Shown here: piece by piece, positions 9,001-33,318 of the stretch
How the letters are laid out: every line of letters starts with the position of its first letter
Position numbering within the stretch: position 1 is the stretch's first letter
Assembly: GCA_001724265.1 (NCBI GenBank)
Contig: MEDY01000211.1
Span: 1 to 52,070 of the forward strand
Source: Rhizaria sp. SCN 62-66
Lineage: Eukaryota
DNA length: 52,070 bases
Direction of reading: 5' to 3'
Made by a program: the position numbers and the translations under genes
The notes under the pieces: generated by a model
Told to the model about the DNA's origin: nothing
The model's database searches: none
What the model saw: only the letters and a program-made list of their open reading frames with translations

Positions 9001-12000
9001 CCGCTTTGCTGCGCTTGAGACACTGCTCACGCGTCAGGTCAACCTGTTGCGCTACCTCCGTCGTGCACGTGCGGCCGTCGTGCTGCCGCCTCCGCCACCT
9101 CCAGTGTACTTATCGCTTCCTCTCTTGCTTGATGCCGCGCCACAGCTCGCGCCACTGTGGGCAGTTACGCTCACGCTCGTGCACGCGAACACCAACAGCC
9201 CCACGCGGGGCTCTGGGCTTGTCCTTGCCGCGCGTGCGCTTGGTTTGCCGGCTGGCTCAACTGCGCTTGCGCATATGTCGGCGCTGACCGCTGTCGCTGG
9301 CCCACTCTGGCGTGTGTTGCTGTCGGAACCTTTAGCGTCACTGCCAACACCGGCACGCGCGATTGTCACGGCGTTACTGGCCCGTTCCAATACTGTCTCA
9401 GCACGTGCGCGCGCGGCAGCAGCCGCGGCTGCGGCAACGGCGGCGTTACAGGCCCTGGAAACTGCTCGTACAGTGTCAGTGCTATTGACCGCCGAAATCG
9501 CCCTTGGTGAAGCCTGGCTCTCGACAAATCCGATGCTCGCCGCCGCAGTTACTGCTACGGAGACCACTAAGACAAATTTGTTTGTTGAAACAGGCCCTGA
9601 CTCCGACACAGATGCTGATACCGACAGTGACAGCGATGATGGTGGAACCGCGAAGCGCGCAGCAGGTTTATCTCGGCGTACGCCGACAAAGGTCAGTCGC
9701 AGCGCCATGGTCGATGCCGAAATCTCTGCATGTGTCAATGGATTTTCTGTCACATCTGCCGCTTTGTATGCTTCCGCCGACGCTCTTGCCACCGCTTTAT
9801 CACCTGCTACTGCTGACGATCGCCAGAACGCAACGCTGCCCATTCACCCGCTTGTCGCTCGCGCTTTGTCGCTGTCGACACCCTACCGCGCGCTTCACTC
9901 CGCGCGCCGCCGCGCTGCGGCCGCAGCTGTGCGCCGCGCAGCTCGTGCGCGTGCTGCAGCGGAAGCCGCCGCGACTGCTGCAGCACTCGCTGCTGCTGCC
10001 CGCAAAGCTGCCCACAAAGCTCGCGCCAAAGCCCGTGCCGCCGAAAAGCATCGCTTGCGAACGGGCGGTGCACGGAGTTCTTCCACTGCGACAGCCGCAG
10101 TTATTGACGCTGTGACTGAGGTTCCGGTTGTCGTGCCTGCGGAGGAGCCGGTGCCCACTCTGCCTGCCCCCTTGCCCGGTAGTATTGCTGCTGCCGATGC
10201 TGCCACGGCTGCCGCTGCAAGTGCGACCGAGTTCTCAGTCCGATGTGCACGGCGTCGCCGTGCTGCAGTTACGGCGCTCACGGCTCTTAACACAGCTGCG
10301 CAGGCACACGCCACATGGTGGATGTCGGTTGCTGCCGCGGCCGGTGCCCCGGTGTCTGTATCTTGGAACCAGCACTCGCGCAGTGACGACCCTGAGTTAG
10401 TCCTGCAGCGCGTCTCTGCTTCCGACGCCGACCCCGCGTGCGGTGGGGAGAGCAACATCGACATTACGCCCGACGCTGTGGGCGCCACAAACAGCGATGA
10501 CCTCAATCGTACGGGTTCCCCTCGCCCGCCCCGTCGCGCAGCCCCTCGCCGCCCTCCGACTGGTCCTTCGACCGCGGCCCTATCGCCGGCCACGCTTGCC
10601 CGTGCGCTACCTTCTGTTCCGAACCGTCCCGCGCCGCGGCGTGCGGCTCCTAGACTCGCTCCTGGCGCGACGTCGGGCACGGCGACGCTGGCTACGACTC
10701 TTGTGGTCGGGAGCATTTTTGCCGTTCAGCGCACGCCGTCACCAGTGCCTGTTAGAGAGATTCCTGCTTTGTTCCCGACCGCAGTGTTTAATTCCGTTGC
10801 AAGTGCCGTTGCCTTTGAGGAGCGCCGTGCTCGCCACCGTGACGCTCTCTGGGCTCGCATGTCTGTCACCTCGCGGTCCTTGAAGAGTGTGATGTCACAG
10901 CTGCACCGGCTGAAGTGTACGGTTCACGCAACCAGTAACGGCCATTCTGGGTCATCAAGTGCTACGCAAATGAATCCTGACGCGATGGCTTTGCTTCCTT
11001 TCCTATCGTCAGATAAATTCACCAGCGCGACTCTGCCTGCTCCCAAGGGGTCTCTTCCTCTGAGCCCTCCACCGCTGCCCCTGTCAGCTGCGCTGGTTGC
11101 CGCGGCCGAGTTTTCTGCTGTTGCGGCGGCGGCTGATCTTCAGGCGCAACGTCGCGCCCTCGCCACGCCACTGCCCACCGCTGCCACAGCCTCGGGTGCT
11201 GCTTTGGCTGCAGCTGCAACGACTGCGGCTACGGCTGGTGCGGGGCTGCAGACACTCTTGTCGCCGCCACTGCTACACGAACTTTTTGCGGCATACGTTA
11301 TCAGCAAGGCTGAGGCTGTCGCCATTGGGGCGTGTGGATCACTGCGCGACGCTGCAGACATTGGGCTGGGTACGGCAGCTTTGTCTCATCACCCGACTGA
11401 GCATGGCGTGTGGACTGTCGCTTCTAAGAAAGTTTCCGATGGTGTCGCTGTGTCCGAAGCAAAGCCGGACCTGGATGGTCAGGATGCGCTTGAGAGTGCT
11501 TTCCGCGAGCTTGCTATGATCGCTAAGAACAGCAGTAACCCTGCGGTGGCCGCTGCTGCCACAGCCGCCTCGGCTGCTCCTGAGCTCCCTACTGTACCAA
11601 CACTTACATCGATGCTTTTACAGGCTCCGCGGTTTGTACAGGCCGACTCGTCAGCCGACTCTTCAGCCTTGCCAGTTCCCGCGGTCGCTGCCTTGATTGC
11701 GACATCACTTATGCGTGCATTTGCGCAGCATGCTGTTGCGGAACCCTCACTTGCACTGATGCTTGCTTCTTTACAAGACAGCATTGCTCTTGCGGCTGCG
11801 CCTTGCGTTGCCCCAATTGCGTCTGTTTCAGCATCAGGATCTGGAATTGCAGCGAAAAAAGCTTCTAGCTCTACTGCGCCGACGACCCACGTGCATTCAA
11901 GCTCGAAGAAATCTGCAGCTGCCAGTGGTAGCGTGGCGGACTCTATTGCTGTTTCCTGTGTGATGCCGCCCCGTCGCGCTGTCCGGCACAAGTTTATGGG

Positions 12001-15000
12001 CTTAGGCACAGCGTCGGGTGTCTCGGCGGCCACCGGTGCGCCCGCTGTGTTGTGTGACGACGCGAGTGTTTTTGATGCGGATGACGACAATGATGCGGCT
12101 GCCGCGGTCGGCAGCACGCCGTGGCCGTTATCACATCTCGCGGCCGCCACCGAGGACGCATCTGCACTTGACTCAGCGATGCGCACGTGGGCCGCTGTCG
12201 CGTCTGCGCAGCTCGAGTGGGCGTTAACGACGGGCGCTGCAGCGACATCCTCCGCATTCGCGTCTGCCATGGACTCTGCTGAGGGCGTTCCCGACGTCAC
12301 TCCTGTTTGCGCACTTACCGCTGCCTTGCAGGCGAGTAAGCGTCATCGTCTATCATCGGCGCGTGGTCGTGTTGCTCCTCCGGTGCCTTCGTTCACTCCC
12401 GGATTGGGCGATGCAGGCGGTGACGGAGGTGATGGCCAGCTGCCACAGGTTCTACCACTGCCGCTTTTACGCGTACTGCTTCGGACTGTGTTCCCACTGA
12501 AGCCGCCTGCGCACATCGAGGAGCTTCTCACCGTTGCCGTGCGTGACGGTGGATTTGTGCTTCGCTGCGATGGGCCTCCGCCGTTGGCGCCTGACGGCAC
12601 ACCGCTCTTGGCCGCACAGCGCCGTGGTCGCGGCCCGCTCGGCCGCAACAGTAAGCGGAACAATGAAACCGCTGTGGCAGGTCCCGTGACAGCAGCTGTC
12701 GCCCTTGCAATTGCGTCCACAGCTGAGCGCACTCTTGTGACGCTCACAGCAAACAAGGCTGCACAAGAGGCAAACGCCGGCGTTTCTGCATCGAGTGCGT
12801 TGCTTGCTGTCCCACCACACTTGTGCGATGCTGCTGCATCTACCATCTTAGCCGCTGGTCCTGCAGAGTCTGTTAACAACGGTCCACAGCAAGGAGGACA
12901 ACAGATTCAACCCCCGCAGGCACCGTCGCTGATGGCTTCGTTGCTTGACCATCGCTCTGGCCTCACGCGTGATACATGGCACCGTCTTTTACTGCAACTT
13001 TCGCCCGCAAATGTTACACAGAGCGGACTTTCCTCGGCTGCTGCCTTGGCTCTGGAGTGCACACCTGGTGCGCATGGCTTGCTGACGACGTTGACCAAGC
13101 TGTTGGCTTGTCCACGTGTCTCGCCTGACTCTGAGGCCCGCGACAACGCTCCATCCGCCTCTTCTCGCGCTCCCACGATTGCGGCTTTGCACGAGGCTGT
13201 GTTGTCTGCTCTGGGGGGCGATCCTGCAGATCGCGCAGTTGCTGTTGGGCGACATTGGGCGTCATCGACTCGCGGCGCTGCGCGCCTTGCCGCTGCTGCC
13301 TCCCTGCGTAATCCGCTCTCGGCGCCACACTCGTCACTCGCTGCCGTCGCGCCTTCCGTCGCGCCCCCGGCCCCCGTGATGCTTGGTCGGGATATTGTGC
13401 AGGCCGGCAGCTCGCGCACTGCCGATGCCACCCGCCCCGTTACGCGCGCCGGGGCAGCTGCTCCCGGCGATGACTCTGCGTCAGACTCGGAAGCTCTTGC
13501 CGGTGACAATGGTGTGCCTGCTTCTGACTCTACTGACGGTATGGACTGGTCATGGTTTGACGCACCAAACCTTGGTCCTGAGCTGCAGACTGCTGCGCAA
13601 CGCGTGGACGCTGCAGTGCACGTGACGTACACCGCAGAGGGCACCGCAGAGGCCGCCGTGCCTGCTGTCCACGCGGCAGCTCGTACTGATTGGGAACTTG
13701 ATGAGACGTTGCTTGCAGCTGCTGAAGCCGCAGTTGCCAAGTGCACGACACGTCGTGCATTGCGTGCACTGATTACTGCCGCGACTGAGCGCGCACGTTC
13801 TTCAGTTACGTCAGCGGTTGCATCGGCACTCACCGCGAAGTCGTTTGAACTTACTCAATCTTTTGTTTATGTTGGCTCTGTGACGACACCGAACACCAGT
13901 GCCATCACGCCTAACATATCGACGAAGGCTCCTGCAGCGCCTGGGGCCGCACGTAAATCGCGGTCGTCAAATCTCTTGCAGCGCCTGTTGGTCGGTGGCG
14001 AGGGCTCTTTGGCGCCGTCCGAGGCCCGCGCTGCGTTTGAGAGCGCAGCAGCAGACGATGAAGAGCAAGCCCGTGTGCGAGTCGAGGCAGAGACGGCTGG
14101 TCTGAAGCCTGTCAGCAACACGGATGCATCAACTGGTTTTACGAACGGAAACACCCAGAAGCCTAACAACAACCCCGTAGCGCTTGCAAGAACTGTCTCC
14201 AACGCGGCCACGGCGGCGCGTATATTTACCCCTACTGGTACTTTGGGCTCACCAGTTGCAGCACCTGTCGCATCAATCGTCTGCCGTCAACCAAGTGTGC
14301 TCGACCGCGCATCATCCCTTCTGACCGTGGTTTCTATTCCAGCCTTGCTTGCGACTCCGGCCGCGTCTGGCGCTGCTCTTACGCCCACACCGTTCATGTC
14401 GTTGTTGCGTGCACAAGCGCTGACAGAGTCGTCAGACGCCGTCGCGTGCACGCTGCGCCGCTCGTTGCACATGAGCGCTACTGCCTTGCCACATTCACGG
14501 GCTGTCCGTGCGCGTGCGACGACCCGTGCTGCCGCCCGCGCCTTGGCGACACTGGCCCGCGCTGCCGCAGCTCAAAGGCTCGCGGCACTACCCGCCGCAT
14601 CACAAATGGCGTCGCTCAATGACACTGCTGCCGCAGCAGCCGCCGTTGCGCAGCCCTCACCCGTGGCTGGTGGCGAGACTGAAGCAGGATCCGCTGCCAG
14701 TGCGCCGCTACAAGCTCCTATTGTCACCGCACCAGTGACCGTCGCTCGCGCCTCGAGCCGCGCGTCAGTTTCATCAACGCCCGCGCTTGCGCCGCGCACG
14801 ATGGGATCAGTGCCTGAACTTACGCTTGCTGTGCCTGCTGCAGGTCCAGTTGCCAGCGTTGTTTCGAGTGCAACTGCATGCGTCGCCGTCTCTGCTGCGG
14901 TCGGCGCGTTGGGAGCCGCAGCTGGGCTTGCGGATGCGACATTAGTGTTGGACGCACTTGCGACTGGTGCACCTCTGCCGCCTGCGGTGACTGATTGCGC

Positions 15001-17188
15001 AGCTGCGCAAGCTACACGGCAGTGTCGCCGATTGTGCCCGTGCCAGTGGGCGCTGTACCGTGCACACCTCACTGCTGTGGCTTCAGCTCGTTCGTCCTGT
15101 CCTTGCCATGGCGCTGCCTCTGCGAACGATTCGACGGACGCATTTTGCACAGGAGCGCAGCTTGCTGCCAGTGTCATTGAAATGGCGCGCTCTGACATTG
15201 CTGCGCGGGTACGGCCGATGCCACGACTGGGCCGATCAGGCTCTGTGGTCTCGAGCTCTGGTGGAGACAGCCAACCAGACAACCAGCCCAGCTCCGGACC
15301 TGCAACAGGGCTTAGTGCGGTTGCTGGTGCGCCCTTGGCCTCCCCTAGAGCGATGCCCTTCTCGTTGCCATCACTCCCGCTTCCGCTCAGCGTTGCTGAG
15401 GAGAACGACGATGACGTTGGTGAGATATTTGTGACCCCATCTGTTCCTGCAGTAGTCACTGCTCCAGTGCAACAGGTCTGCTCGTGCACGCAGCAGCAGA
15501 CGCTTGCTGCCGTGCTCCGCTCGGCTGGCGTGCCTCGTCACTACATTACCGTTGCTGTTCCCATCCCTGACGGCGCATCCGGGTCCGTCTCGAACGCATC
15601 TAGGGGTGGCGTGTTTGCCGCATCCGGTGCATTTGATGACGATGCGCTGCGCGATGACGAGAGCGATGACGACGACCGCTCTCCGGTGGCCCCACCTTCT
15701 TCAAGGGCGTTGCACGTTGCTGTGCATGGCACGTGCGACCGCGATGCCATCTTTGCCCATTGCGCCACCATCTCTCTCTCCACGGTAGCACCGCCCTGCC
15801 AGCGCCTTGAGGCTTACGCCGCCGCAATCGCTGCCCGCCCCGCTGCCGCCGGTGGTGCCACTTATGCCGCTAGCTCCTACACAAGTCCTGCCGACATCTG
15901 TGCCCACTTTAGCCCAACTAAAACTGCTGCGGTAACTGTTAAGGGCGGCGAAAGTGACGTTGACTCGCTTGCCCGGGCGCTCCGCTTGCTCGACGCCAAC
16001 GATCCCTTGGCGGCCGCAGACGGCAGTTCAACGCAGTTTATTCTCCCAACGCCGTTGGTGTCCGTCGCACCTGCGGAGGAGGGCGACGACCCTGCGTTGG
16101 ACGGTTACAAGCCCTACCGCTCCGGCGACTGGCTGCGCGCCTCTACGCTACGCGGTGGCCACGCCGCCCGTCCCCCCGCGGGCACCGACATTACGCTGGC
16201 TACCGACGCACCGTTGCGCATGGCTTGGGTGCTCCCACATCCATTCGCTCAGTCGTCTGGCCACGTCGATGGTCCTATAGTGACTTTGGCGGCCACAACA
16301 GAGGCATTTACCGCGGCCGTCGCGGAGTCGGCTGCAATTGCAGCGGGCGTTGCAGCGCCTGTACAGGCAAGTGCGGCCGCCGCTCTGCCCCCCGTCTCCG
16401 CCGCCGCTGTTGCCGCAGCTGCTGCGAGCGCGTTTGCGCGCGCGTGTGCTTCCGAGGGCGGAGCTGCGACTTCCGACGGCGACGCCTGCGTCCGCGTCGA
16501 GGCAGTCATTCGTGCCGCGCGGGCGTGCGGCGCGCTGCGTTCGCTGACGCAAGCGGCCCCGCTGAACCCCGCCGCGCTGTGGGGCCCGCGGGCTGCCGTA
16601 GCGGCTGGCTCTCGGCCTGCCACGCGCGCCGCCCCGCTGCGACGCGCTGCCACCGTGCCGCCGCCTGTCGCCGACGACGTGGTGCCCGTGTGCGAGCTCT
16701 CACTGCTGGGCTACGGCGCGTCTGCGGCGGCAGCAGCTGCGCGGTCTGCGGCAGGCAACACCCATGCGGCTGCACACGCGGCTGCGTGCGAGTGCGGCTC
16801 GCACTGCGCAAGCTTCGGGTTCCGCAGCACTGCGGCGCGCCCCGCACAGCCCTCCATCCAGCCTGCCGCGCTCACAGTGTCTCCCGCTGCGGACCGCTCG
16901 GCGACCCCCGATACGGGTCTACTCTGCCAGCGCACGGCTGCCGGTGCCGCGTCAGATGCCGCCGCGCTAGTTGCGGCGCGCGCGTGGATGCTGGCCTCGA
17001 GCGTCGCAGCCGCCGCGGCCGCCGCGAACACCGCGGCCGGGGCGCCAGGTAATGCCAGACTTGTCGCAGGTTTGCCCACTCCCGCCGCAGGTGCCGTCGC
17101 TGCTCTTGACGCAGCAAGTGCCTCCACTGAGTCGTCGGGTTCGCGCAGGCGCCTCCGGTTTGTGGAAATCAAGGAGGAGAGCTTTTGA
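2..17188 (+). CDS. Giant Ala-rich protein, 5'-partial (>=5,728 aa), with dispersed TSNAXIP1-like (translin-associated factor X-interacting protein 1) motifs
   Basis: The frame of the 227..17188 ORF is open back to base 2 and ends TTT TGA TGA. Short blocks resemble TSNAXIP1 as I recall it and occur in the same order: EHATLDCELALATQERD...LTPR (~3902-4021), FMGLG (~11993), LRTVFPLKPPAHIEELL (~12480-12530), PFMSLLRAQ (~14390), LRLLD (~15980). Coding status is firm; the family call is tentative. Confidence 0.75.
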   Translation, partial: RADAAQLAAPWRPPRGFEARNAVDSTDADAAALEEALAAPPAARLSHGARAATAAAQELAVSAGGSGSAALEEADMSGLAQGVRALQRRGSAELAPPSPRRGSVADAADGANAAAGDAGVLSATAQSTTLPSARDFLAALAANAAAGAAVLERSARGMPLGAHREHPFAAAADPAGGGGVLARATAPRAVRLPVRPLPYGFVTAGDRAVAAQVAALRTAAVAAAADVIDTVTTAAAANAGSTATETEPAALMPPRLALSRAEAPAAAALRAAIGGNHGLTGAAPALGTLRQREQRLLMSGAAAALQVLFPATPDTPDLSLPTVQLLLLQKDGATAESSAGAVGDAAPHNGGAADAADESDGDVEQEADPEAEAADAAVRGQSLAAYMDQPGSDEEALRLPPGATVSTPFPMPPPRAAAAGSPALTPLTEATATGGIAVPVQAPARVRGVGAPVPALPRLAMPEPSQSTALVPGALLPPLALSDSARGSARGTARATSRTTLLDRAPVEKPAFEASVAMSALAASKVRPNKASFYPSTLLTVPADPLVAAQSAATSARVRTTAAAAARAAAAAKQRSGAVAIDPRAVAAAFAASAEAEALALRAAVAALPAGDHHRAVPTATFATGALVPFAADGPSSARAGTRNDIAAAAEAALVSSGSISHSAGAGVGITTNRVSSAVEAEMGDYRSPMVFVQAKLAELLGEARAPWANGTNSSWQPRAMPANAGDDRAFLTQLTDDAERKRLIFGDTPLGSATAAAAVAAGGLTEPAAELDDDGALLSTLHSTAARAHALVDLLEIGLRARLGLRATAATAVLADPNVAAPTAAASLFPDKIADPYELPAHTTARASTSAAALAGSGSAGAVTAAVSIDPRYTVVPAATLAAAALSSAAATGARLEPESGLVDAGTVLTDGAGDVWRDAAGDPCHGDLLLRVSGLAEAGAADDDTPADAAAVAAADAGLVELCTDPALLDAAVCAIFSELREAVFSREHLEVTGVADSVADDARSVSSAANAAAARVAAVTASAEVALAQQLRAAAANDAANARDAAAMRADVLASAAREAQWQAPELPGVFHTEDAFAATNAAKRQGFAATSTALVDLDAPNPAPVQAPAPPAAPSRVRLLPVPHFAVAHRLAAALRGLERESATAAAEVARLEEAEHTQEQELQWRSAWRAKKDLQLQLYRRGEAGLLEELALIARIDADTRQEVAQLAQDNLQLLQGYTRPGLVLGGAAEREWRLRLVDGHMYPPSSSSDSEGGDDEGDEADAKTSASQRPARHLSSTIGHTLYDVYRRLLRQRTEHATLDCELALATQERDALLLRFEALSTLTAQTLVHLTPRAIVPAALPVLPASVARTLESNATPGSAPAHSAGASGWSSQSPFSQTPSLSVANPAANNAQNKTITTAALEWADAQAARWDRWMRRAFPSLLPTAGEEALELPRYYALMRRRMLRQAHADAARRTRAQVLTQQLASQQRTAEAAGSLSAASSFGARSGVMTRNTSATAISLAHAHGHASAADAQERKDATAAEIDAAYAGVDEPESAVGGAFDRALWRWLALRAGAADWGLIGLAALDGTATITGAERPLESVLAAAARNHARHTRAAAAVWALNNSGYAPFSPRASDPFDGYTSDSGSDCDAPMPVLIPDLHADSSRDDDTAAAAAAAAKAAAAEPAAATPVRRAAAHELPLSTLLQHERRMQAAPASDASNALRLPGEEEGEAAPMRLPPPIAMHRRTSLSHLATAAAAAAAATAAAAAAAAAGSSPHAGSAASAGAAFGGRNSSSSGSFFGNPPALAQGLGRRNSVSLALAADAAAAAAAAAAAAAASPSSQAPPVEPRRERAAPRALRARAPRSRRAAASRRGQQIAGRRRSVASSSESGSSSGDQDDDDDDEVIDAAEAAVLASEGAEHAALAAQLLRPGLTRPRPPTGSTVPTLGALAGANRSGTMPPLPSAGGRSVRLRPRGAAAPETVAAALVAQPAGLSTPGRRSLSAASGGTPAQSQPPTPSGSTTPRVPGALQAFTKRPSLFASAEALALAQTALLAGSTARPSVFGALARTAAPGAAVTVNPGTWHSPALAVAVRNLTKRAIRRLREATPWHQAMLLTSATEAAAAASTVANTGGTVVLTTAAGKIAADTAATAAADAAVVRALDNEVAAAAAGAADAASVALGRSRHRDATSVFIENEDSTRVHGAQAVEASTIAVTTALQAWDDAAAAAAASVTVTDAEPPASFLPALSHSAAVETSSQAHSRPPTRPGTAAGAGVPSSSQLDAAEQALAAQALIAVIRQPGLLNAPLSASPFAVMPNTPKPAGDGGFPLLLSPRASMTSPLAPLLQLAASAAAAPTAATAEQTTARASFFTQMAQVAPTEQRSTESRAAAVIPRSLLPLLPPQMVLLMRAVPTLPLAAALAKLVSPAPLPAASVTAASSGAAAAAALSAASTAGGIGYGTPGQQRRSMVQRPSMVRSSTVGLAPTPVPMTPAVSLQPPTPMTTTAPALAAPTLTSVASNSAVLSVTVSQLPRLPTSLPPAVTLLVSAARLTLLRAASVLVTRSTGGKGRAAAAARAKAALQAVSVNVDAAAANATHGKDASLSPSPRRSSLADLRSPNAPLTPTSGATPAAGSHPTQSPAAVGSSSASARGPMLPPLVAAAVTAAMASALGLPLPSIEVRSSMRPTVSALETAVAALDAAAAAAAPAESTLQTATAQGSVALSTSKSASQRAAQRASAGPAAALAVVATAVRALLPQAAPANTAISSGVNSGFSTTPSSVPAFGWGSAAPTPLASSTAASSDSSSVGPLSPRHRRNASNDSAATPASAMHSPAAAGGLALVAGSVGVAAALAAALGVRLGGHSRRPSQSGIVGPLSPSRGRSKSPSAAAAAAAAAGGLTTPGVDRSRTVKSPRAPPTGAAPTPSAGRTAFTFDLPETGAPPLARASSVADSVSSPRSRRGGVHGGATPLAISSPRSGATTSTRAAHGHARRGSAAGATASAASAANRFAALETLLTRQVNLLRYLRRARAAVVLPPPPPPVYLSLPLLLDAAPQLAPLWAVTLTLVHANTNSPTRGSGLVLAARALGLPAGSTALAHMSALTAVAGPLWRVLLSEPLASLPTPARAIVTALLARSNTVSARARAAAAAAAATAALQALETARTVSVLLTAEIALGEAWLSTNPMLAAAVTATETTKTNLFVETGPDSDTDADTDSDSDDGGTAKRAAGLSRRTPTKVSRSAMVDAEISACVNGFSVTSAALYASADALATALSPATADDRQNATLPIHPLVARALSLSTPYRALHSARRRAAAAAVRRAARARAAAEAAATAAALAAAARKAAHKARAKARAAEKHRLRTGGARSSSTATAAVIDAVTEVPVVVPAEEPVPTLPAPLPGSIAAADAATAAAASATEFSVRCARRRRAAVTALTALNTAAQAHATWWMSVAAAAGAPVSVSWNQHSRSDDPELVLQRVSASDADPACGGESNIDITPDAVGATNSDDLNRTGSPRPPRRAAPRRPPTGPSTAALSPATLARALPSVPNRPAPRRAAPRLAPGATSGTATLATTLVVGSIFAVQRTPSPVPVREIPALFPTAVFNSVASAVAFEERRARHRDALWARMSVTSRSLKSVMSQLHRLKCTVHATSNGHSGSSSATQMNPDAMALLPFLSSDKFTSATLPAPKGSLPLSPPPLPLSAALVAAAEFSAVAAAADLQAQRRALATPLPTAATASGAALAAAATTAATAGAGLQTLLSPPLLHELFAAYVISKAEAVAIGACGSLRDAADIGLGTAALSHHPTEHGVWTVASKKVSDGVAVSEAKPDLDGQDALESAFRELAMIAKNSSNPAVAAAATAASAAPELPTVPTLTSMLLQAPRFVQADSSADSSALPVPAVAALIATSLMRAFAQHAVAEPSLALMLASLQDSIALAAAPCVAPIASVSASGSGIAAKKASSSTAPTTHVHSSSKKSAAASGSVADSIAVSCVMPPRRAVRHKFMGLGTASGVSAATGAPAVLCDDASVFDADDDNDAAAAVGSTPWPLSHLAAATEDASALDSAMRTWAAVASAQLEWALTTGAAATSSAFASAMDSAEGVPDVTPVCALTAALQASKRHRLSSARGRVAPPVPSFTPGLGDAGGDGGDGQLPQVLPLPLLRVLLRTVFPLKPPAHIEELLTVAVRDGGFVLRCDGPPPLAPDGTPLLAAQRRGRGPLGRNSKRNNETAVAGPVTAAVALAIASTAERTLVTLTANKAAQEANAGVSASSALLAVPPHLCDAAASTILAAGPAESVNNGPQQGGQQIQPPQAPSLMASLLDHRSGLTRDTWHRLLLQLSPANVTQSGLSSAAALALECTPGAHGLLTTLTKLLACPRVSPDSEARDNAPSASSRAPTIAALHEAVLSALGGDPADRAVAVGRHWASSTRGAARLAAAASLRNPLSAPHSSLAAVAPSVAPPAPVMLGRDIVQAGSSRTADATRPVTRAGAAAPGDDSASDSEALAGDNGVPASDSTDGMDWSWFDAPNLGPELQTAAQRVDAAVHVTYTAEGTAEAAVPAVHAAARTDWELDETLLAAAEAAVAKCTTRRALRALITAATERARSSVTSAVASALTAKSFELTQSFVYVGSVTTPNTSAITPNISTKAPAAPGAARKSRSSNLLQRLLVGGEGSLAPSEARAAFESAAADDEEQARVRVEAETAGLKPVSNTDASTGFTNGNTQKPNNNPVALARTVSNAATAARIFTPTGTLGSPVAAPVASIVCRQPSVLDRASSLLTVVSIPALLATPAASGAALTPTPFMSLLRAQALTESSDAVACTLRRSLHMSATALPHSRAVRARATTRAAARALATLARAAAAQRLAALPAASQMASLNDTAAAAAAVAQPSPVAGGETEAGSAASAPLQAPIVTAPVTVARASSRASVSSTPALAPRTMGSVPELTLAVPAAGPVASVVSSATACVAVSAAVGALGAAAGLADATLVLDALATGAPLPPAVTDCAAAQATRQCRRLCPCQWALYRAHLTAVASARSSCPCHGAASANDSTDAFCTGAQLAASVIEMARSDIAARVRPMPRLGRSGSVVSSSGGDSQPDNQPSSGPATGLSAVAGAPLASPRAMPFSLPSLPLPLSVAEENDDDVGEIFVTPSVPAVVTAPVQQVCSCTQQQTLAAVLRSAGVPRHYITVAVPIPDGASGSVSNASRGGVFAASGAFDDDALRDDESDDDDRSPVAPPSSRALHVAVHGTCDRDAIFAHCATISLSTVAPPCQRLEAYAAAIAARPAAAGGATYAASSYTSPADICAHFSPTKTAAVTVKGGESDVDSLARALRLLDANDPLAAADGSSTQFILPTPLVSVAPAEEGDDPALDGYKPYRSGDWLRASTLRGGHAARPPAGTDITLATDAPLRMAWVLPHPFAQSSGHVDGPIVTLAATTEAFTAAVAESAAIAAGVAAPVQASAAAALPPVSAAAVAAAAASAFARACASEGGAATSDGDACVRVEAVIRAARACGALRSLTQAAPLNPAALWGPRAAVAAGSRPATRAAPLRRAATVPPPVADDVVPVCELSLLGYGASAAAAAARSAAGNTHAAAHAAACECGSHCASFGFRSTAARPAQPSIQPAALTVSPAADRSATPDTGLLCQRTAAGAASDAAALVAARAWMLASSVAAAAAAANTAAGAPGNARLVAGLPTPAAGAVAALDAASASTESSGSRRRLRFVEIKEESF

Positions 17189-17454: not shown

Positions 17455-18215
17455 TCACTCGGCTTTGACGGCAGGCGCACGAGGCGTCTTGGGCTTGGCC
17501 TCGACCTGCGGCTTATTGCCCGAGAGCAGGTTCGAGATGGACATTTGCGACTGCATGCGGCGCATTTCAGCCTTCTCCTCGGGCGTCATGTTGCCCATGA
17601 GGCGCGGCATGAGCAGAGCCATGCCGCCCATCAGCACCATCATCAGCACCATCGGCTGCTTCAGCCACGCCAGCACGTCAATCGACTCGCGTGGCACGAA
17701 GTACGTCTCTGGCGCCGCGGGCCGCAGCTGGAGCGGGTACGCGGCGGGGGTGCGCACAGGCGTGGGGTCCGTCGCCGACAGCGCGTGCTGGCGGAACGCG
17801 GTCACCGCGCCCTTCTCGGAGACAATTATACTCGTCTAAGTGAAGTTGTGAGGCAAGATGAGAGAAGACGGCGATGGTTATGAGTGACACGTTCATGCTA
17901 TCCGGGCTTGCTAATCGTGCGGAGGTCATGGTGAAATGTTGATTGACGTACGGGTTCAAACTGAAAGCCTGTGGCGGAGACATCGACCGTGTACTGGCCG
18001 GGGGCAACGTCGGTGAAACTAAATCCGCCATCCTTGCGAATGAAGGCAGAGCGGCGGCCAGCGTCAAGGATGACCATCGCATCGAGGGGGGCAGCAGCAG
18101 GCGCCTTAAGTGCAGGGTTCATGTAGACGAACTTCACAGACCCGTCAATGGAGGCCGCAGAAGCAACCATAGCCATCGCACAAATAGCTACAGCAAGGAT
18201 AGTGCAACAATTCAT
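17455..18215 (-). CDS. EMC7: ER membrane protein complex subunit 7, 2 exons (18215-17952, 17835-17455), 214 aa
   Basis: Signal-peptide-like N-terminus (MNCCTILAVAICAMAMVASA). Beta-sandwich motif AFIRKDGGFSFTDVAPGQYTVDV. Then YFVPRESIDVLAWLKQPMVLMMV (TM) and MPRLMGNMTPEEKAEM, typical of EMC7/DUF2012. A phase-0 intron joins two ORF-track fragments in frame. Confidence 0.9.
17836..17951 (-). other. Spliceosomal intron in EMC7 (116 nt)
   Basis: CCC|GTACGT...TTCACTTAG|ACG; removal restores the frame. Confidence 0.88.
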
Positions 18216-18762: not shown

Positions 18763-19096
18763 ATGCAGCCCATGGCGATGCAGCCGGCGCCCCGCGTGCC
18801 CTCGCGCCCGTCCTCGACGCGTCACAGCCGTCCGCCGGCTTCTGAGCACCAGTACCAGCACGCTCCCGTCCAGTCCCCGCAGCACCAGCCGCAACAACAG
18901 CAGGGCTTGCCCGCCCACTACCTCACACCCGCGCCGTCGTCGCGCATGACCACTGCCGTGAACTCGGCCGCGGCGCGCGCGCTGCAGAACACGGTTCCCA
19001 GCAAAGGCTTCGCGGCCCATGCGATGGGCTACGATGCGCCGCAGCAGATGCACTCACCGCCTTCGCAGCAACAGCAGCAGCAGGCGCAGCACCATT

Positions 19097-19140
<44 letters not shown>

Positions 19141-21078
19141 CAACAACAACAACAACAGCAAGCTGGACTGCCTGCCGGAATGTCGGCGCTGCAGCTAAAC
19201 CGTGTGCGCTCGCAGACGCCGCACTTTGACGCCTCCCCGCGCAAGGGTTTTCCCCCGCAGCAGCAGCAGCAGCAGCAGCAGCTGTCGCAGCAGCAGCTGC
19301 AGCAGCTGCAGCAGCAGACCCACGCGCAGCGCCAACAGCACCAGCAACAGACGCAGCAGCAAGACTACGCGTTCGCGCCCCACGGCGTGCGCGGCCGCGG
19401 CGGACACATGTCGCAGCCCAGCACGCCCGCGCACCGCTCCGCGCACAACTCCTTCGGCCCCAGTGCCAGCTCCGGCGCCGGCCCCGCGCCCGCTGCGTCG
19501 TCCACGCCCGCGCCCGCGCACGTGCCCGCGGCCGCTAGCCACCGCGCCGCCTCTCCGTCGCCCTACGCCGCGCAACAGCAACAGCAGCAGCAGCAGCCGC
19601 GTATGCAGGTGCAGATGCAGCAGCCCGTGGCTCAGTCGGGCCTCGCGGCGTCGCACCAGTCATCCGCCCTGGTTCCCGTGGCCTCGCCCGCGCCTACTAT
19701 GCAGACCCAGTCGAGCGGCGCGTTCGCGTCGAGCTCTGCCGTGGTCGCGGCTGCGACGAGCGGGCCGTTCCCGCTCTCCGCGTCGCTCGACGGCACGCTG
19801 GTCGAGTCCGTGCCCGTGGGCGCGGGCGCGGTCAAGTTGACGCCGCTGCAGGCTCTGTACAAGGACCGCTGCGACCTGCTGCGCTACCTGCACCACTACA
19901 AGGAGGACGTCGCGGCGCGCGAGAGCGACATGCGCGCTGCTTTCGTCCGCCTCGCGCAGGAGCTGGGCCGTGCCAAGCGCGACCTGGGCGCGCTGCAGCA
20001 GCGCGAGGCGATGCTGCGCGACCTGTGCAAGGGCATGCTGCTTGACAAGGGCGCGCACAAGGTGCACGCGCAGAGCGAGGAGGCATTCTGGTCCGCGCTA
20101 GGGCTGGGCGCCCCCGACGCCGCGGGCGCCAACGCGGGCGCCGTGACGGCGGGCACGACCTCGGGTGGCAAGGCCATCTCGCTGCTCATCGCGTCGCAGC
20201 CGGCCGACTCGTTTGCCTTCGACTCTGAGGCCGTGTCGGGCACCTATTGGGGCCAGCACATCGCCGCGCCCGTGCCCGCCAAGACGGTCGCCAACAACGC
20301 CGCAATGGGCACCTCGGCCGTCGCGGGCGCGGGCGCGGGCAACGCCGCGGCGTCGTCGGGCAACTATGTCTCCTTCGGCGAGTTCCAGAAGATGCGCGCG
20401 AAGCTCACTGCGCTGGACCGCGAGCGCCGCGAGAGCGCGGAGAAGATTGCGCAGCTGCAGAAGGAAAATGACCGCTTCCGCACCAAGCAGCGCGACCAGG
20501 CGCTGGCGCGCACCGACGCCAAGTGGGAAAAGCAGCGCGAGCACCTCATGGGCGCCGTCAAACGCATTCAGTGGCTCGTTGGCGAAACTAAGCGCCTTGA
20601 GAAGGGCCGCAAGGACGACGCGGCCTACATCCTGCGCCTCGAGCAGGCCATGCTCGCGATGCGCCAGCGGCTGCGCACGGTGACCGCGGGCGCTGCCGCG
20701 GGCCCCACGCCGCAGCAGCTGCAGCAGCAGACGCAGCGCCAGGCCGCGAGCGCCGCCGCCGCGCTGCAGGGCACCGGCATCTCGCTCCATGCCGCGGTGC
20801 CGCGCGTCTTCGGCGAGCCCGCGTCGGCGGCCGCCACGCTGCCCGCGGGCCTGACCTCTGCGCCCGGCACGCCGGTCCGCGGCCCCGGCGGCGCGGGCGC
20901 GGCCCCCACCCCGGGCTCTGGCTCGGCGGACCTGCAGGCCGCGGTGCGCCGCCTGCGGAGACTCGAGATGCACACTGCGCTCTACCAGTCCGCGAACGCA
21001 CCCCAACAGCCGCAGCAGCAGCCAGTGCAGCAGCAGCCACCGCAACAGTACGCGCATCAGGGTTATGCTCCGCAGCAG

Positions 21079-21109
<31 letters not shown>

Positions 21110-21699
21110 CGCAGCAGGCTGACTACGGCCACGGCGACTACGCCCCCGAGCACGCTGACGGCCAGTACGACGGCAGCCAGTACGGCAATGGCGAGTACGG
21201 CCACGAGCCCTCACAGCACCAGCAGCATCAGGGCCAGTCTGAGGCCGAGCCCCACCCGTCCCACGCCCCAGCCAATGCCTCCGGCGCCGCGCCCAGCGCG
21301 GGCTACGGCGGCGGCGGCGAGGAAGACATGCTGAGCGACGAGGCTTTGGCGGCACTGCTGGCCGAAGCCGACGGCGCGGCCGCCGCGGTCGCCGACGAGG
21401 ACGCCGACACGGATCAGTCGCAGTCGCAGGGCGCTACGCCCGCGCACCGCCGCGCGGGCTCCGTCTCCGGCGGCGGGGTCTCGTCCCTGCAGGGCGACCC
21501 GGCCGCCGCCGACGTCAGCGGCGTCGGCGGCGATGGCGACTGGGCGTCGTCGTCGATGATGCGCGACCTGCTGGCCGAGGCCGGTGTCGACGCGGATGAG
21601 CTCATGGGCTTTGCGCAGGCGCGCAAGAACGCTCCGGGCCCCGCGCCGCAGCCTGGTCAGCCACAACAGCACCAGCAGCAGGGAAGCCGTTTAAACTGA
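18763..21699 (+). CDS. PolyQ-rich coiled-coil protein, 978 aa (zero-frame product of a probable frameshifted gene)
   Basis: ATG start and strong GC3 bias. Two predicted coiled-coil blocks (LQALYKDRCDLL...; FGEFQKMRAKLTALDRERRES...) and polyQ tracts. Ends CGT TTA AAC TGA. Confidence 0.85.
19099..19161 (+). repeat. CAG/CAA trinucleotide repeat encoding Q21
   Basis: Read directly from the sequence. Confidence 0.95.
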
Positions 21700-21739
21700 T
21701 TTCCGCTGCCGGTGGGAGTGCGCACCCAGTGATGGCGGA
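21690..21739 (+). promoter_or_regulatory. Candidate -1 programmed ribosomal frameshift signal (T_TTA_AAC, 5-nt spacer, hairpin)
   Basis: X_XXY_YYZ heptamer at 21690-21696, in phase with the upstream ORF, with TGA at 21697. Stem 21702-21708 pairs with 21733-21739; inner TGGG/CCCA pair. The -1 frame runs to 23828. Confidence 0.65.
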
Positions 21740-21807
21740 CGGTAACGCCGCCCTGCCTTCCGCGCGCACCTGGGCGGGACTGCAGCAGACACAGCAACAT
21801 CAATACG

Positions 21808-21838
<31 letters not shown>

Positions 21839-23828
21839 GCAACAGCAGTGGCAGCATCAGCAGCCTCAACAGCCGCAGCCGCAGCAGATGACATGGCACC
21901 AGATGCTCTCCGCGTCTGCCGCCGCCTCGATGTCGCAGTCGTCCGCGCAGTCTCCCGCCCCGGGCGCCGCCGCCTCACTCGCGCACGCTGGGACCCCTGT
22001 CCCAGCCCAGCCTACCGCCAGCGGATCTCTCTTCGCATCCGCTTCTTCCCCTCCGTCGCGCCCGCGCTCCGCAGCCCCGCATGCGGCCAGCACCGCGCCC
22101 AGAGCGTCGCTGGTGCCCGCCGCGGCGACGCGCCCGCTCTCACGGCCCATGTCCCGCGCGCGCCACGCGGCCTCGCCCGCGCACACGCCGGCGGCCTCGC
22201 GCTCGCCCGCCGCGGGCCGTCCCAGCCGCTTGCAGACCGTCGCGCAAGGCCTCGCTCGCCGCGCGCTCGCCGGTCGCGCCGCGTCCCCCGCCGCGTGCGA
22301 TGGCGGGCACGACTTCGCGGCCTCCGCGCCCGCTTTCTCGCTCGGCGCGCTTAACAGCACACCCTCGCGCCGCGCGCGTCTGGCCGCTAACGTTGCCTCG
22401 CCGGGCAGTGAGGCCGCGCCCCGTGGTCGCCCGCGCCCGTCCGTATCAATGCACGCCGGCAACGCCGTGCTCGACACCGCCCCACCCAACGATGACGAGG
22501 ACGGCGGCTTTGGCGGCTACGGATACGGCCCCAGACCCACCGCGCGCGCCGCCGCAGCCGCGTACGAAGCCGAGCTGGGTGCGCTGCAGACGGCCTTCGA
22601 GACGGACACGGCGCCCGCGCCGTCGCCCTCGGCCTCGGTCGCGGGCGTGGGCTCGTACGCGCAGACGACGTCGGTGCAGCGCAGCCGGGCAGACGCTGTC
22701 CGCGCCTCGGCCGCGCACGGACCCGCTTACGCGCCTGTGCCCGCGCGGTCCGCGACACCCGCGCGCCGCAACGCTGCCGAGACCGCCGCGGCGACGGTCA
22801 AGCCCGACATTGCGGCCCGCAAGGCCGCGCGCAAGACCAAGGCCGACGACGCCGCCGCCGCGTACGAAGCGTACCAGCGCGACCAGTTCGCCGTGTCCGG
22901 CGCCGGTGCCGAGCTCTCTGACGGCGGCCCCGCGGACTCTGATGACTACGACGACGCTGCCGACGACGACTACAACAGTTCGCGCGCCGGCGGGCTCTCG
23001 CCGGGCTCCGTGCGCGGCGGCGTCGCGCCCCCCGGTCCCAGCGCCGGCCGCGACCGCGCGACCCGCGCCGCGGACCTGAGCGAGACGCTGGCGCTGTTCC
23101 AGGAGCGCGCGCATATGGACGACGCCGACGCCGCGTACGCCGAGGCGCTAGCCGCCGCCCGTAGCCTGCGCACACCGAAGGCCGGCGCGCAGGGCTTCCC
23201 CCGCGGCAGCCCCGCGCGGTCTGCCACCCGCGCCGACGCCGCACCCGTCTACTACAAACACAACGACGATGAAGACGACGATGACGAGTACGACGGTAAC
23301 GATGCTGCTGGTCATGCCGCGCGCCCTGGCTCGATCGCGCCCGGCTCGAGCGGCAGCGGCGATGCCTACGCGAGCAGCGGCGACGGACACCGCGCCGGCG
23401 CAGCCTCACCCCCCGTGAGCCGCGTCGCTGGCCACCCATTCACCCCGCGCGGCGCCAGTGCGGCTCCCGTCTTTGCTGCGCATGCGTCGGTCAATGTGAC
23501 CACACAGAGTGCCGGTGATGACGACGGCAACGACAACGGTGAAGATGACGAGGAAGAGCTGGTGCCGCCGCCGTTCGCGGCTGACGACAGCGCCGTCGAG
23601 CACAGCCTCGAGGGAGGCGTGATCGGCGGCGGCATCGGCGGCGACGACGGCTTTGGCTACGGGTATGGCGACGACGACGCGGCTGCGCACGGGGCGAACT
23701 TGATGTTCCCGGACGCGCCAGAGACCGGCGACGCGGGCCACCGTGAGCATCGCCGCAGCAGCGCCGGCGCAGGCGAGGATGAGGGCGATGAACTGAACCT
23801 TGACCTGAACTTCTCTGACGAACTGTGA
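21696..23828 (+). CDS. Low-complexity acidic/Ala-rich extension (710 codons in the -1 frame; first ATG at 21732)
   Basis: Long open frame with coding-like GC3 bias. Its first ATG is only 32 nt after the upstream stop and there is no AT-rich spacer, so it is probably part of the same gene. Confidence 0.75.
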
Positions 23829-29542: not shown

Positions 29543-30048
29543 CGTTGGAAGCCGCAATCGTAGGCAATGTGCCTAAGTACCTAGATCGTATCTGGTCGCG
29601 TAGATATTTAAACACAAGAGACAGTAGACATGTAAAAAATAGAGAAATGGTACATATCTAATACCAGTCGAGTGTGGATAACGATACACTTCCTTAAAGT
29701 TACTCGTTATTGGCCTGATGACGGAACTCGCTCACAGTCGTTTTGACAGGAGACCGACAGGCGTGGTGTCGGTTATTCGCAAGCTCGGCTTTCGATGAGT
29801 ATTTCACACCGAATCCCTCGTAAAAGTGTACTTGCGCCGTAATATATTCGTCAAACTTGCGGATTTTATTTAGTCATTAATGAAACATTTGCATTATTTG
29901 TGCTTATAGCTTCTTCTGCTCATTGCTCAATTTCACGAAACGCCCTCCCTCCCTTGGTTTCCAGACTCATCAAAGCTACCTGTTACGCATATTAAGGACT
30001 GACAATAAGCACTGACAACACAACACCCCTGGTGTTCTACCGCACAGA

Positions 30049-33000
30049 ATGGCTACCGCAGCGCAGAGCATGCCCGGCTTCTCGGCGACGGGTGCTTTCG
30101 GTTCGACGCAGCGCTCTCTGGCAACGACTCAGCCGTCTGGCTCGCTTCAGCCGCCGCCCCAACACACGTTCACACCCATCTCGGCTACAACGGCTTCCGC
30201 GACTGATTCGCAGGACTTTGTCATAGGCCGCACGGCCCTACTGACGACCCGTCTGAAGTCGCCCTCATCCGCGCGATCTTCGCAGCCCTCAAGCGTGCGC
30301 GTTGCTTGGGCCCCCACACTACCCCCACCCACAGTGGCGCCGCACCCGCTCTCCACTTCCTCCAACGTCTCGCGCTTCTCGCAGTCGGGACCTATTCGTC
30401 TGCTTCCCTCCGTTGCCCAGGCCGCTAACCGCGGGCCCGCCGCGTCGTCATCCTCGGCGTCGGCCGCCAACACCAACGCCGCTGCAGCCCCCGAGGCGCG
30501 TCCCTGGACCGCGCGCGACTCCGTGCTCGTCGCACCGTCGAGCGAAGCTCGGCAGCGGCGCTACGGCAGCGCTACGCTCTCGCGGCTTGACGGCCACAAG
30601 GTGCGCGACCTGGCGCAGTCGCACGCGCTGCGCACGGCCACCTCGCGCGCTGCCGTGGTCGACTCCGCGGCCGCCGCGGGTCTCTATGCGCCCGCGCCCG
30701 CGACGCGCCTCGACGCGCCGGCCGCGGGCGACTAGGCCGCAGCGGCCGCCGCGCTGGTGACGCTCTCGGACCCGCGCGCGGTGGGCCAGGCGGCGCAGGT
30801 GCCGCGGTACCTCTCAGACGTGTGGCTGGCGAACCGGCAGACGGAGGCGTCTGCGGAGCGGTTGCGCAAGCACACGGCGCACCTCGTTGCCGAATGGTCC
30901 GCCGGGCTCGCGCGCTTCGACGAAGAGGTCACGCGTCGCCAGGAGGTCAACGCGCACACCAAGCCGCGCCTCGCGTGGCGCGGGCCCGCGCTCGCGGCCG
31001 TGCAGCCGCAGGCGGTGCTCCAAGCGCAGCTCGCCGTCTCGCACAGCGCCACTGCCGCGGGGCCGCGCGGACTCGCCGTGCCCGCCAGCGCCGGCGACAG
31101 TGCGCTGCCCTGGGCGCTGCGTGCGGCCGCGGGGCCCGGCGGCGTGGCGGCCCCCGCCGAGATCGCGCGCTACCACACCAGCGACGCGTGGTCAGCCACC
31201 GTGACGGAGCAGCCGCGCCGCGGCAAGAAACCCGCCGCGACGACGGTGCAGCTCGAGCATTGGCAGCAGATGCAGACGCAGCCCGCGCCGCTGCCCGCGC
31301 CGCCCGCGATGGGCACGCAGGCGCCGCCCGGCAGCCGCGGCGGCAAGCGCGCTGTGGCCGCCGCCGAGGCCGCCGCAGCCGCCGCCGCCTCGGCGCCCGT
31401 AACGTCGAGCACGCTCGTCAACGCCACGCCCAGCGCGCTGACGGCCGTGCCCGCGTCGCTGCGGTCCCCGCTGGCGCCACCGCCGATGCCGACGGCGCTG
31501 GATGTGGTCAAGCTGCAGGCGCAGCAGCAGCTCGCCTTCCGGGCCCGCATCCAAGCCTCGTCGCGCATCGGCTCCGCGCCCGCGTCCCTGTCCGCGCCTG
31601 CTTCCGACGGCGGCGCCGACGAGCTCTCTACGCTTATCTCCCACCCGTCAGCGAGCGCTGGCGCCGCCGCGGCAGCGGCTCCGGCTGCGCAGCCCGTGTC
31701 TGGCTTCTCGCTCTCCGCGTACCGCCCCCTGGCGGCCTCGGCGTCGCTGTCGCACTCGCTCGCGCAGCCCGCGCTGACGGCCTACGACGCGCGCGCATGC
31801 TCCGTTGCGCGCCCCGCCGGCGGCAGCTACGCGCTGGCGCCCGCTGTGGACGCGTCGATCACCGCCGCGCTGGCCGCCGCGCCGCCAGGCGCCGCGGGTG
31901 CGCTGTCTCCGGCCGAGGAGCGCGCGCTTGACGCCGCGCGCCTGGTGACGCAGCCTGACGCTGCGACGCGCTCGCCCACCAAGCGCGCGTCGCTGATGCA
32001 GCCCGCGCCGGCGGGCTCCACGGCGGCGTTCCTGCGGCCGCCCGTGGCCGAGGCCGGTGCGCGCGAGTCGCCGCACTTCGATCCCTACACAGACGAGCTG
32101 CCCGTGCCATCCCCGATGCACGGCGCCACGGGCTCGGCAGGCCCCGCGTCTGTGCGCGCCGGCCACGCGCGCAGCCCCGCCGCCGCGGGCACTGGCAAGC
32201 CGCGCACGGCCTTCACCTTCAGCGCAGTCGGCGGCGCGCACGGAGAGCAATCGGCTTCGGCCGCGGCGCTCAACGCCGCCGCCGCTGCACACCAGGAGGC
32301 CGAGCTCGCGGCGCCCGCGGTGCCCGAGGCGCTGCGCACGGCCGTGCTGAACCAGGTCGCTGCGCCGCCCGCGGGCGTGCGTACGCTCCCTGGCTCCTTC
32401 GCGGGCCTCTCGCTCGCCCCCGTGTCCGCCTCGGGCGCGGAATCACAGCAGCAGCAACAGCAGCAGCCGCAGCTCGTGCCCGCGGGCCGCGCGGCACCGC
32501 TACTGGGCGTCAAGACCATCGTGTTGGAGAGCGTGCCCCCGCCCCCGACGGCCGCCGAGGTGGCCGAGGCCGCCAAGAAGGCCGCTGCGGCGCGCAGCCG
32601 CTTCCCGGGCTCTGGCGGCGGCAGCGCCGCGTCGCGCCGCGGTCAGCCCGCGCCCGCGCCGCCGGCGATGCAGAACACGTATGTGGCTGGCGGCGTCAAC
32701 AACGCGCTGGTGCTGCCCCCGCCCGTTGCGTACCAGCTCCCCGCGGGCGCCGTGCAGCCCGCAGGCGTGCAGCGCATCGTGCCTGCGCCCGCGGCCGCCG
32801 CCGCCGCTGCCACTGCGGCGCCCGCGGCCGCCGCCTCCTCGGCCTCAGCGCCCGCTGCACCCGCTGGCTCTATAGCGGTGCCGCGTGCGGCGACGGTGAA
32901 CGAGTTCGCGACGCAGGCACCGCAGCCGACGGCGCATCTGTACTCGATCGCGCATGAGCCGCTGCCCAAGATGACCGTGGGTGCGGGCAAGCTGCGCGCC

Positions 33001-33318
33001 CAGGTTCCCGTGATGACGAGCGGCAGCGCGCTGAGCACGCAGCCCGACGCGGCGCGGGCGAACCTGGCGCGCGCTGCGGCGCACGTGGTGCGCAAGCACG
33101 ATCTGCTCGAGGTCGAGGTGATCAAGACGACACTGGCGCAGAACAACGTCAGCGTCCCCACGAGCACGCTCGAGCGTGCGCTGGTGGCGCCCATGGTGAC
33201 CGTGCCGGACCAGGCGCGCAACGTGTTCCTGCCGCCCATGACGACGCTCGTGGCCAACCCCTACGCGCCTGTCGCGGCCAAGAAGACCAAGCGTAAGACT
33301 GCCGCCAAGAAGCAGTGA
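30049..33318 (+). CDS. Uncharacterised protein, single 1,089-codon frame interrupted by one in-frame TAG (30733-30735)
   Basis: ORFs 30049..30735 and 30757..33318 share a frame and codon-like GC-rich sequence continues across GAC TAG GCC GCA. Globular-looking blocks (YLSDVWLANRQ...EWSAGLARFDEEVTRRQE; HDLLEVEVIKTTLA...LERALVAP...NPY) and a basic tail lie downstream of the TAG. Confidence 0.7.

Follow-up and report, generated by a model that had tools for sequence, protein, structure and literature searches.

In readthrough of the tobacco mosaic virus (TMV) type the leaky motif is UAG followed by CAR-YYA, and in readthrough genes of the kelch and headcase type the stop codon is conserved among relatives. 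In Drosophila kelch and headcase an internal stop codon parts a short open reading frame (ORF1) from a long one in the same frame (ORF2), giving two possible isoforms, and the ORF1 of kelch is reported to encode a protein subunit by itself. In the gag-pol gene of murine leukemia virus (MuLV) an 8-nucleotide (nt) spacer and a compact H-type pseudoknot are needed, and the extent of readthrough is 5–10% (PMC4178896). UAG has also been reassigned in nuclear genomes. It encodes Gln in Iotanema spirale and Leu in the rhizarian exLh, and most genes of exLh have at least one in-frame UAG (Pánek et al. 2017, PMC5304391). Here we analyze a single in-frame TAG codon in a gene on contig MEDY01000211.1 of Rhizaria sp. 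SCN 62-66 (assembly GCA_001724265.1). The whole stretch of 52,070 nt is called the window. Searches for earlier findings gave none.

The TAG is located at 30733–30735 in the context GGC GAC TAG GCC GCA GCG GCC. In common with MuLV gag-pol, it has UAG followed by G and two ORFs in the same frame. The arrangement of a short ORF1 and a long same-frame ORF2, with two isoforms that could result, is also that of kelch and headcase. As in I. spirale and exLh, an in-frame UAG occurs within a conserved gene, with UAA and UGA as terminators and no TAG terminator seen. We consider the most likely reading to be a premature termination codon, i.e. a nonsense allele in a near-clonal lineage, and hold this with middling confidence. 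It is supported by the absence of the stop codon from the homologs seen, by the lack of any sign of a changed code and by the failure to find a readthrough signal above the level of chance.

The interrupted gene and its protein family

The stop-to-stop ORFs on the two sides of the TAG (30016..30735 and 30736..33318) are in the same frame. Translation from ATG 30049 with the TAG read as X gives 1,089 residues, of which X is residue 229, and no in-frame ATG follows the TAG before 31270. We trained a codon-usage score on the other long ORFs of the window, and it is positive in frame 1 from 30025 to 33250, including the TAG. The GC content of third codon positions is 0.90–0.96 on both sides, with no dip between approximately 30475 and 33250. 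Local GC content at the TAG is 0.80–0.83, and there is no AT-rich spacer. Neither a second stop codon nor a frameshift was found in the 860 codons downstream of the TAG, using the ORF map and the coding score. We read 30049–33318 as a single exon of one gene. The sequence-only reading had described two same-frame ORFs parted by one TAG, with no AT-rich spacer and no in-frame ATG before 31270, and on all these points the sequence and the ORF map agree with it.

We searched 1.84 billion cluster representatives with phmmer and obtained 25 matches. Two of these are the window's own halves, i.e. P0003 (residues 8–228, 221 amino acids) and P0002 (853 amino acids from a GTG start at 30757). A single matching stretch crosses residue 229 in 12 of the 23 non-self homologs, the best stretch begins after residue 229 in three, and the remaining eight match in the C-terminal block only. 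With these eight left out, we aligned 15 homologs with the window's protein P0001 (alignment A1, 16 rows), and conservation extends to either side of the TAG in every one of them. BLASTP comparison with P0005, the best full-length relative, gave one high-scoring segment pair (HSP) at query residues 151–383 that passes through X229 with E = 1e-29, and a second at the C-terminal block with E = 3e-13. The possibility that the TAG separates two different genes is ruled out by homologs that span the site.

Three blocks are conserved in the family, termed A, B and C from the N-terminus (Table 1). In A1 the five invariant columns are all downstream of the TAG, as are eight of the ten that are nearly invariant, and every invariant residue is retained. 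An AlphaFold2 model based on the 16-row alignment is mostly of low confidence, with a mean predicted local distance difference test (pLDDT) score of 46, although helices are confidently predicted in all three blocks. The mean pLDDT of ten-residue blocks is 63–87 over residues 181–210, and 88–93 over residues 251–300. In contrast, it is below 50 for residues 213–229, ending at the TAG, and we therefore place the TAG in a variable linker. The length of this linker differs greatly among the A1 homologs. A restart of translation at ATG 31270 was considered and rejected; it would skip block B, and this ATG comes after a 228-codon ORF.

The family has no name. A Pfam scan gave no family for 15 of the 16 members, with one matching SURF2 at E = 0.002, a profile search of the PDB found no relative, and look-ups in Atlas and Rfam provided no name. 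The analysis has defined an unnamed family with no Pfam or PDB match that is known from predicted proteins alone. Its members combine three conserved helical blocks and a tail rich in lysine with sequence that is otherwise predicted to be disordered.

A smaller alignment (A2) was used in one scan of metagenomes for related loci, and two were found. L001:9773–12451 encodes P0005 as an uninterrupted ORF of 892 codons from ATG to TAA, on a contig with a GC content of about 0.53. Pfam matches on the relative's contig include a PHD finger with CpG_bind_C, a TPT transporter and BT1. L002:4140–6113 encodes another member of the family, and this ORF is also uninterrupted at the DNA level. None of the homologs seen has a stop at the position of the TAG; these are 30–41% identical, and split forms escape protein searches. 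Among the 1.84 billion representatives, phmmer found no relative with more than 41% identity.

The TAG is also present in a separate, per-run assembly. The stretch occurs in metagenome runs from bioreactors, wastewater and sludge, and in one polyA metatranscriptome. The per-run Logan contig of run X3 (depth 5.78) matches 30283–31404 with no differences, TAG included. All 101 words sampled from 30300–31300 are present in X1, X2 and X3 (fraction 1.00); these runs are dated 2015, 2016 and 2017, come from two studies and may include the source sample. P0002 and P0003 have one member sequence each in the protein collection, and each is called on four contigs. Given the X3 contig, the words in X1–X3 and the split products on four contigs, a random sequencing error is an unlikely origin of the TAG. 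The sequence-only reading had named such an error as an explanation that would overturn it, and this objection fails. Its proposal of one gene with a single genuine TAG is upheld by the homologs that cross the site and the X3 contig that contains it. A word-indexed search among proteins of 598–1906 amino acids did not find the 1,089-residue form, its 8000 candidates being filled by low-complexity words.

Over the pieces listed, amounting to several kb, the contigs of X3, X4 and X5 have 0, 0 and 1 differences from the window respectively, and the lineage is nearly clonal. The listed pieces of X5 and X8 miss the TAG, and a short X8 match at 30735–30757 is a partial match of low complexity. Assembled contigs show the presence of an allele only, not minor alleles. 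It might therefore be supposed that the TAG is an artifact of the consensus, i.e. a minor or erroneous variant kept by the assemblers while most cells have a sense codon. The low coverage of the X3 contig, the blindness of contigs to minor alleles and the possible identity of X1–X3 with source samples would all be consistent with this. The site is also flanked by GGC and inverted repeats, and such elements are linked to sequencing errors. Yet three separately assembled runs hold all the sampled words, both split products are found on four contigs, and the contigs of X3, X4 and X5 are almost identical to the window. We consider such an artifact quite improbable.

Splicing, reassignment and readthrough

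Two genes of the window are interrupted by introns, and these serve as references (Table 1). The EMC7-like gene (17455–18212, minus strand) demonstrates that the organism splices. The AMPK-beta-like gene (48819–51414, plus strand) has a spliced product of about 808 amino acids with a long N-terminus of low complexity. Both spliced models translate without internal stops, and both introns have a pyrimidine tract at the 3′ end. The TAG is covered by 65 in-frame GT..AG spans. Their GC content is 0.75–0.83, compared with 0.48 and 0.37 for the two real introns, and no span has a GTACG donor or starts after 30726. All 65 donors are at or before 30680, and removal of any of these spans would consequently take away at least Y213, a nearly invariant residue of block A. 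Codon periodicity continues unbroken over the TAG. Moreover, a contig from the polyA RNA run X4 (Table 1) passes every donor between 30500 and 30680 unspliced, although its origin from mature mRNA is unproven; 202 of the 2,289 X4 bases listed are outside coding sequence, and both introns lie outside the compared stretch.

The 135-nt intron at 30601–30735 that had been suggested as an alternative from the sequence fares no better than the rest. It would delete block A, it is unlike the real introns, and it is retained in the X4 contig. The TAG is not within an intron. The existence of 65 candidate spans in an organism with two introns in the window is the best argument for removal of the TAG from the mRNA, whether through an unusual intron or through editing of the RNA, and set against the composition, donors and position of those spans it leaves this explanation extremely unlikely. 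A further X4 contig at 29837–30038 lies in the divergent intergenic region upstream of ATG 30049, and corresponds either to a 5′ untranslated region of at least 210 nt or to carry-over of DNA.

If UAG were a sense codon it should be found in other genes. In nine ORFs of the window there is one in-frame TAG in 14,858 codons, and eight of the nine have none. A six-frame scan and a coding-potential map of the window revealed no other coding frame broken by TAG. The same nine ORFs contain 516 CAG and 93 CAA, a total of 609 Gln codons. The I. spirale study reports 204 in-frame UAG codons in 126 genes, corresponding to about 8% of Gln codons (PMC5304391). At that rate about 50 in-frame UAG codons would be expected from 609 Gln codons, compared with the one observed. 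The locus differs from both I. spirale and exLh, where most genes have at least one in-frame UAG, in having one in about 15,000 codons. UAG is not a frequent sense codon in this organism, and the earlier suggestion that it is reassigned is not sustained by the comparison with I. spirale (PMC5304391). The single site aligns to a variable linker of low complexity.

The terminators and tRNA genes of the window bear on the same question. The terminators comprise eight TGA and two TAA, and none of the ten is TAG. This is a small sample, and if TAG is assumed to make up about one-fifth of terminators then none in ten would be expected about one time in ten. In the relative L001 six of seven terminators are TAA and one is TAG. 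ARAGORN found no tRNA with a CUA anticodon in the window, which carries little weight in 52 kb; the search for such a tRNA that had been proposed was made within the window only, with this negative outcome. The only call made by ARAGORN, at 16454–16545 within ORF 2–17188, has a four-base anticodon and is probably spurious. UAG might nevertheless be reassigned or ambiguous, no longer a terminator and rarely a sense codon, as in an early stage of a UAG-only code change. The terminators of the window and the in-frame TAG in a clearly coding, conserved gene conform to this idea, and UAG-only nuclear reassignments do exist (PMC5304391). However, the shortfall from about 50 expected codons, the TAG terminator of the more distant relative L001 and, to a small degree, the tRNA result are contrary to it, and we regard it as very improbable.

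Functional readthrough would require a near-cognate or suppressor tRNA to decode the UAG often enough for the complete 1,089-residue protein to be made in addition to the 228-residue form. The residue inserted would lie in a disordered linker where any amino acid may be tolerated. We searched for signals that could promote this. The sequence 3′ of the stop is UAG GCC GCA, with no match to CAR-YYA, and the context from +4 to +9 (G CC GCA) is thus not of the TMV type. The hairpin GGCCG-CAG-CGGCC (Table 1), to which attention had been drawn in the sequence-only reading, does exist, but is at the level of chance. It is one of ten perfect hairpins with 5 base pairs (bp) and a 3-nt loop in this 3.27-kb gene, there are 69 if loops of 3–8 nt are allowed, and 16 inverted-repeat pairs occur in the 701 nt of 30400–31100. 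The 120 nt starting from the TAG have a folding energy of −61.3 kcal/mol, compared with −62.7 ± 4.2 kcal/mol for shuffled sequences (z = +0.34), and 125 of the 200 shuffles are as stable; the calculation covers nested structures, with pseudoknots being outside its reach. No readthrough signal above chance was found using hairpin counts and the nested fold of these 120 nt.

The differences from the described systems are consistent with this. Where MuLV has an 8-nt spacer and an H-type pseudoknot, the hairpin here has a spacer of 0 nt and is at chance level, and the nested fold does not exceed shuffles. No signal of the MuLV kind, with which the sequence-only reading had compared the context, was found in the nested fold. 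The ORF1 of kelch is reported to encode a protein subunit by itself, whereas the stop here splits the conserved blocks of one family; known cellular cases of readthrough usually extend a complete protein. Finally, unlike genes of the kelch and headcase type, the stop is found in no relative seen. These observations argue against functional readthrough. Other features argue for it: the TAG has persisted in runs of 2015, 2016 and 2017, it is positioned where pLDDT is below 50, no terminator of the window is TAG, and there is a site resembling a recoding site in a neighboring gene (below). The intact downstream ORF that retains all the invariant residues of the family, and the synonymous nature of both downstream polymorphisms, also count in its favor. 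Taking both sides together, we judge functional readthrough to be unlikely, though not to be dismissed lightly.

A probable recent nonsense allele

A recent single-base nonsense change in a near-clonal lineage would account for the TAG, whether as a fixed change or in one of the two alleles of a diploid. The sequence-only reading had named a strain-specific nonsense allele among the outcomes that would overturn its proposal, and this is the reading we consider most likely. Ribosomes would end at the TAG to leave a 228-residue fragment lacking blocks B and C, and readthrough would be basal and unprogrammed only. We infer that the TAG arose by mutation and is not a signal in use, and that it is recent. 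Because the lineage is near-clonal, a recent lesion could be carried without decay of the sequence downstream. The locus resembles a premature termination codon or a young unitary pseudogene in having a single stop that is absent from homologs, no recoding signal and an undecayed ORF, in a lineage of this type. It is unlike a typical nonsense allele in three respects, which are the lack of any wild-type allele seen, two synonymous polymorphisms out of two downstream and the absence of TAG as a terminator elsewhere in the window.

These and some further observations weigh against the nonsense allele. No wild-type allele was seen in the contigs, which are blind to minor alleles. The 860 codons downstream are fully intact, and this fits a recent origin and functional readthrough equally well. 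The only differences in the downstream ORF in other runs are 30924 A>G and 32520 C>T, both of which are synonymous third-position changes. A single change would be synonymous in about 28% of possible cases, and two out of two would therefore occur by chance with a probability of roughly 0.08 under neutrality. TAG serves as terminator at none of the ten gene ends. The RNA run X4 has contigs both 5′ (30415–30726) and 3′ (32554–32730) of the TAG. Lastly, there is a second break in the neighboring gene, and two lesions in 11 genes are many for plain mutation.

The significance of the locus depends on which reading holds. As a nonsense allele only, the TAG would be an ordinary lesion in a dispensable gene, together with a caution for the annotation of eukaryotic contigs from metagenomes, as prokaryotic gene callers split the gene into proteins of 221 and 853 amino acids. 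If the TAG is read through, the gene would be a rare example, among cellular genes, of dependence on the decoding of a stop that lies between conserved blocks. Taken with the frameshift-like site 9 kb upstream, readthrough would suggest a protist lineage with relaxed termination and possibly early stop-codon reassignment.

The neighboring gene and the window

The neighboring ORF 18763–21699 ends in U_UUA_AAC UGA; the heptamer, at 21690–21696, is in the slippery phase and directly precedes the TGA. The −1 frame is open from the heptamer to 23828 (ORF 21732–23828), about 700 more codons. In-frame heptamers of the form X_XXY_YYZ are found at only 4 of 15,059 codon positions. No structure above shuffles was detected downstream of the heptamer (z = −0.19), and a word-indexed protein search found no homologs of ORF 18763–21696. 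An intron of 41 nt (GT..AG, 21690–21730) was considered as an explanation of the frameshift and rejected, being unlike both real introns. The site represents either −1 frameshifting or a lesion that shifts the reading frame. It is mainly because of this U_UUA_AAC site that recoding is kept alive as a reading. UAG would then be a poor terminator or none, decoded in the gene analyzed here, and the two ORFs of the neighbor would be joined by −1 slippage, such that two of 11 adjacent cellular genes would be recoded. We assign only a slight probability to this. Were it true, it would provide a free-living eukaryote with translational recoding in two of 11 adjacent cellular genes.

Table 1. Positions of features of the interrupted gene, the reference introns and an RNA-run contig in the window.
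Feature	Position	Strand	Evidence
Part 1 of gene, 228 codons, from first ATG to codon before TAG	30049..30732	+	Frame-1 coding score positive throughout
In-frame TAG, codon 229, in variable linker	30733..30735	+	Sequence; X3 contig with 0 differences; pLDDT <50 at residues 213–229
Part 2 of gene, 860 codons plus TGA terminator, in frame of part 1	30736..33318	+	ORF map, coding score
Conserved block A, residues 177–215, (K/R)-x-RDL-x-x-SH motif and L-Y-x-P-R	30577..30693	+	A1 (Y213 nearly invariant); BLASTP HSP to P0005; predicted helices 188–195 and 200–209
Conserved block B, residues 254–299, invariant W283, E292, E293, E299	30808..30945	+	A1, A2; predicted long helix 250–309
Conserved C-terminal block (C), residues 1012–1071 (I1025, L1041, E1042, R1043, L1045, P1048), followed by lysine-rich tail	33082..33261	+	A1, BLASTP; predicted helices 999–1060
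Hairpin GGCCG-CAG-CGGCC, 5 bp, 3-nt loop, overlapping the G of TAG	30735..30747	+	Fold; chance level
Reference intron 1, 116 nt, GC 0.48, GTACGT...TTAG, EMC7-like gene	17836..17951	-	Pfam EMC7_beta-sandw split over two frames, profile positions 2–56 and 87–122
Reference intron 2, 169 nt, GC 0.37, GTACGC...CGCAG, AMPK-beta-like gene	50562..50730	+	CBM and interaction domain in two frames
Contig of X4 (polyA RNA run), 312 nt	30415..30726		0 differences, 0 gaps; ends 7 nt before TAG

The GC content of the window is 0.58–0.76 per 2 kb, with long ORFs on both strands, and we interpret it as belonging to an uncultured eukaryote of wastewater and bioreactor metagenomes whose genome is GC-rich and has few introns. 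Neighboring ORFs have Pfam matches to Amidase, Pkinase, Robl_LC7 and AMPK1_CBM. On the plus strand a single open frame at 2–17188 extends beyond the 5′ end of the window and has 5,728 codons or more.

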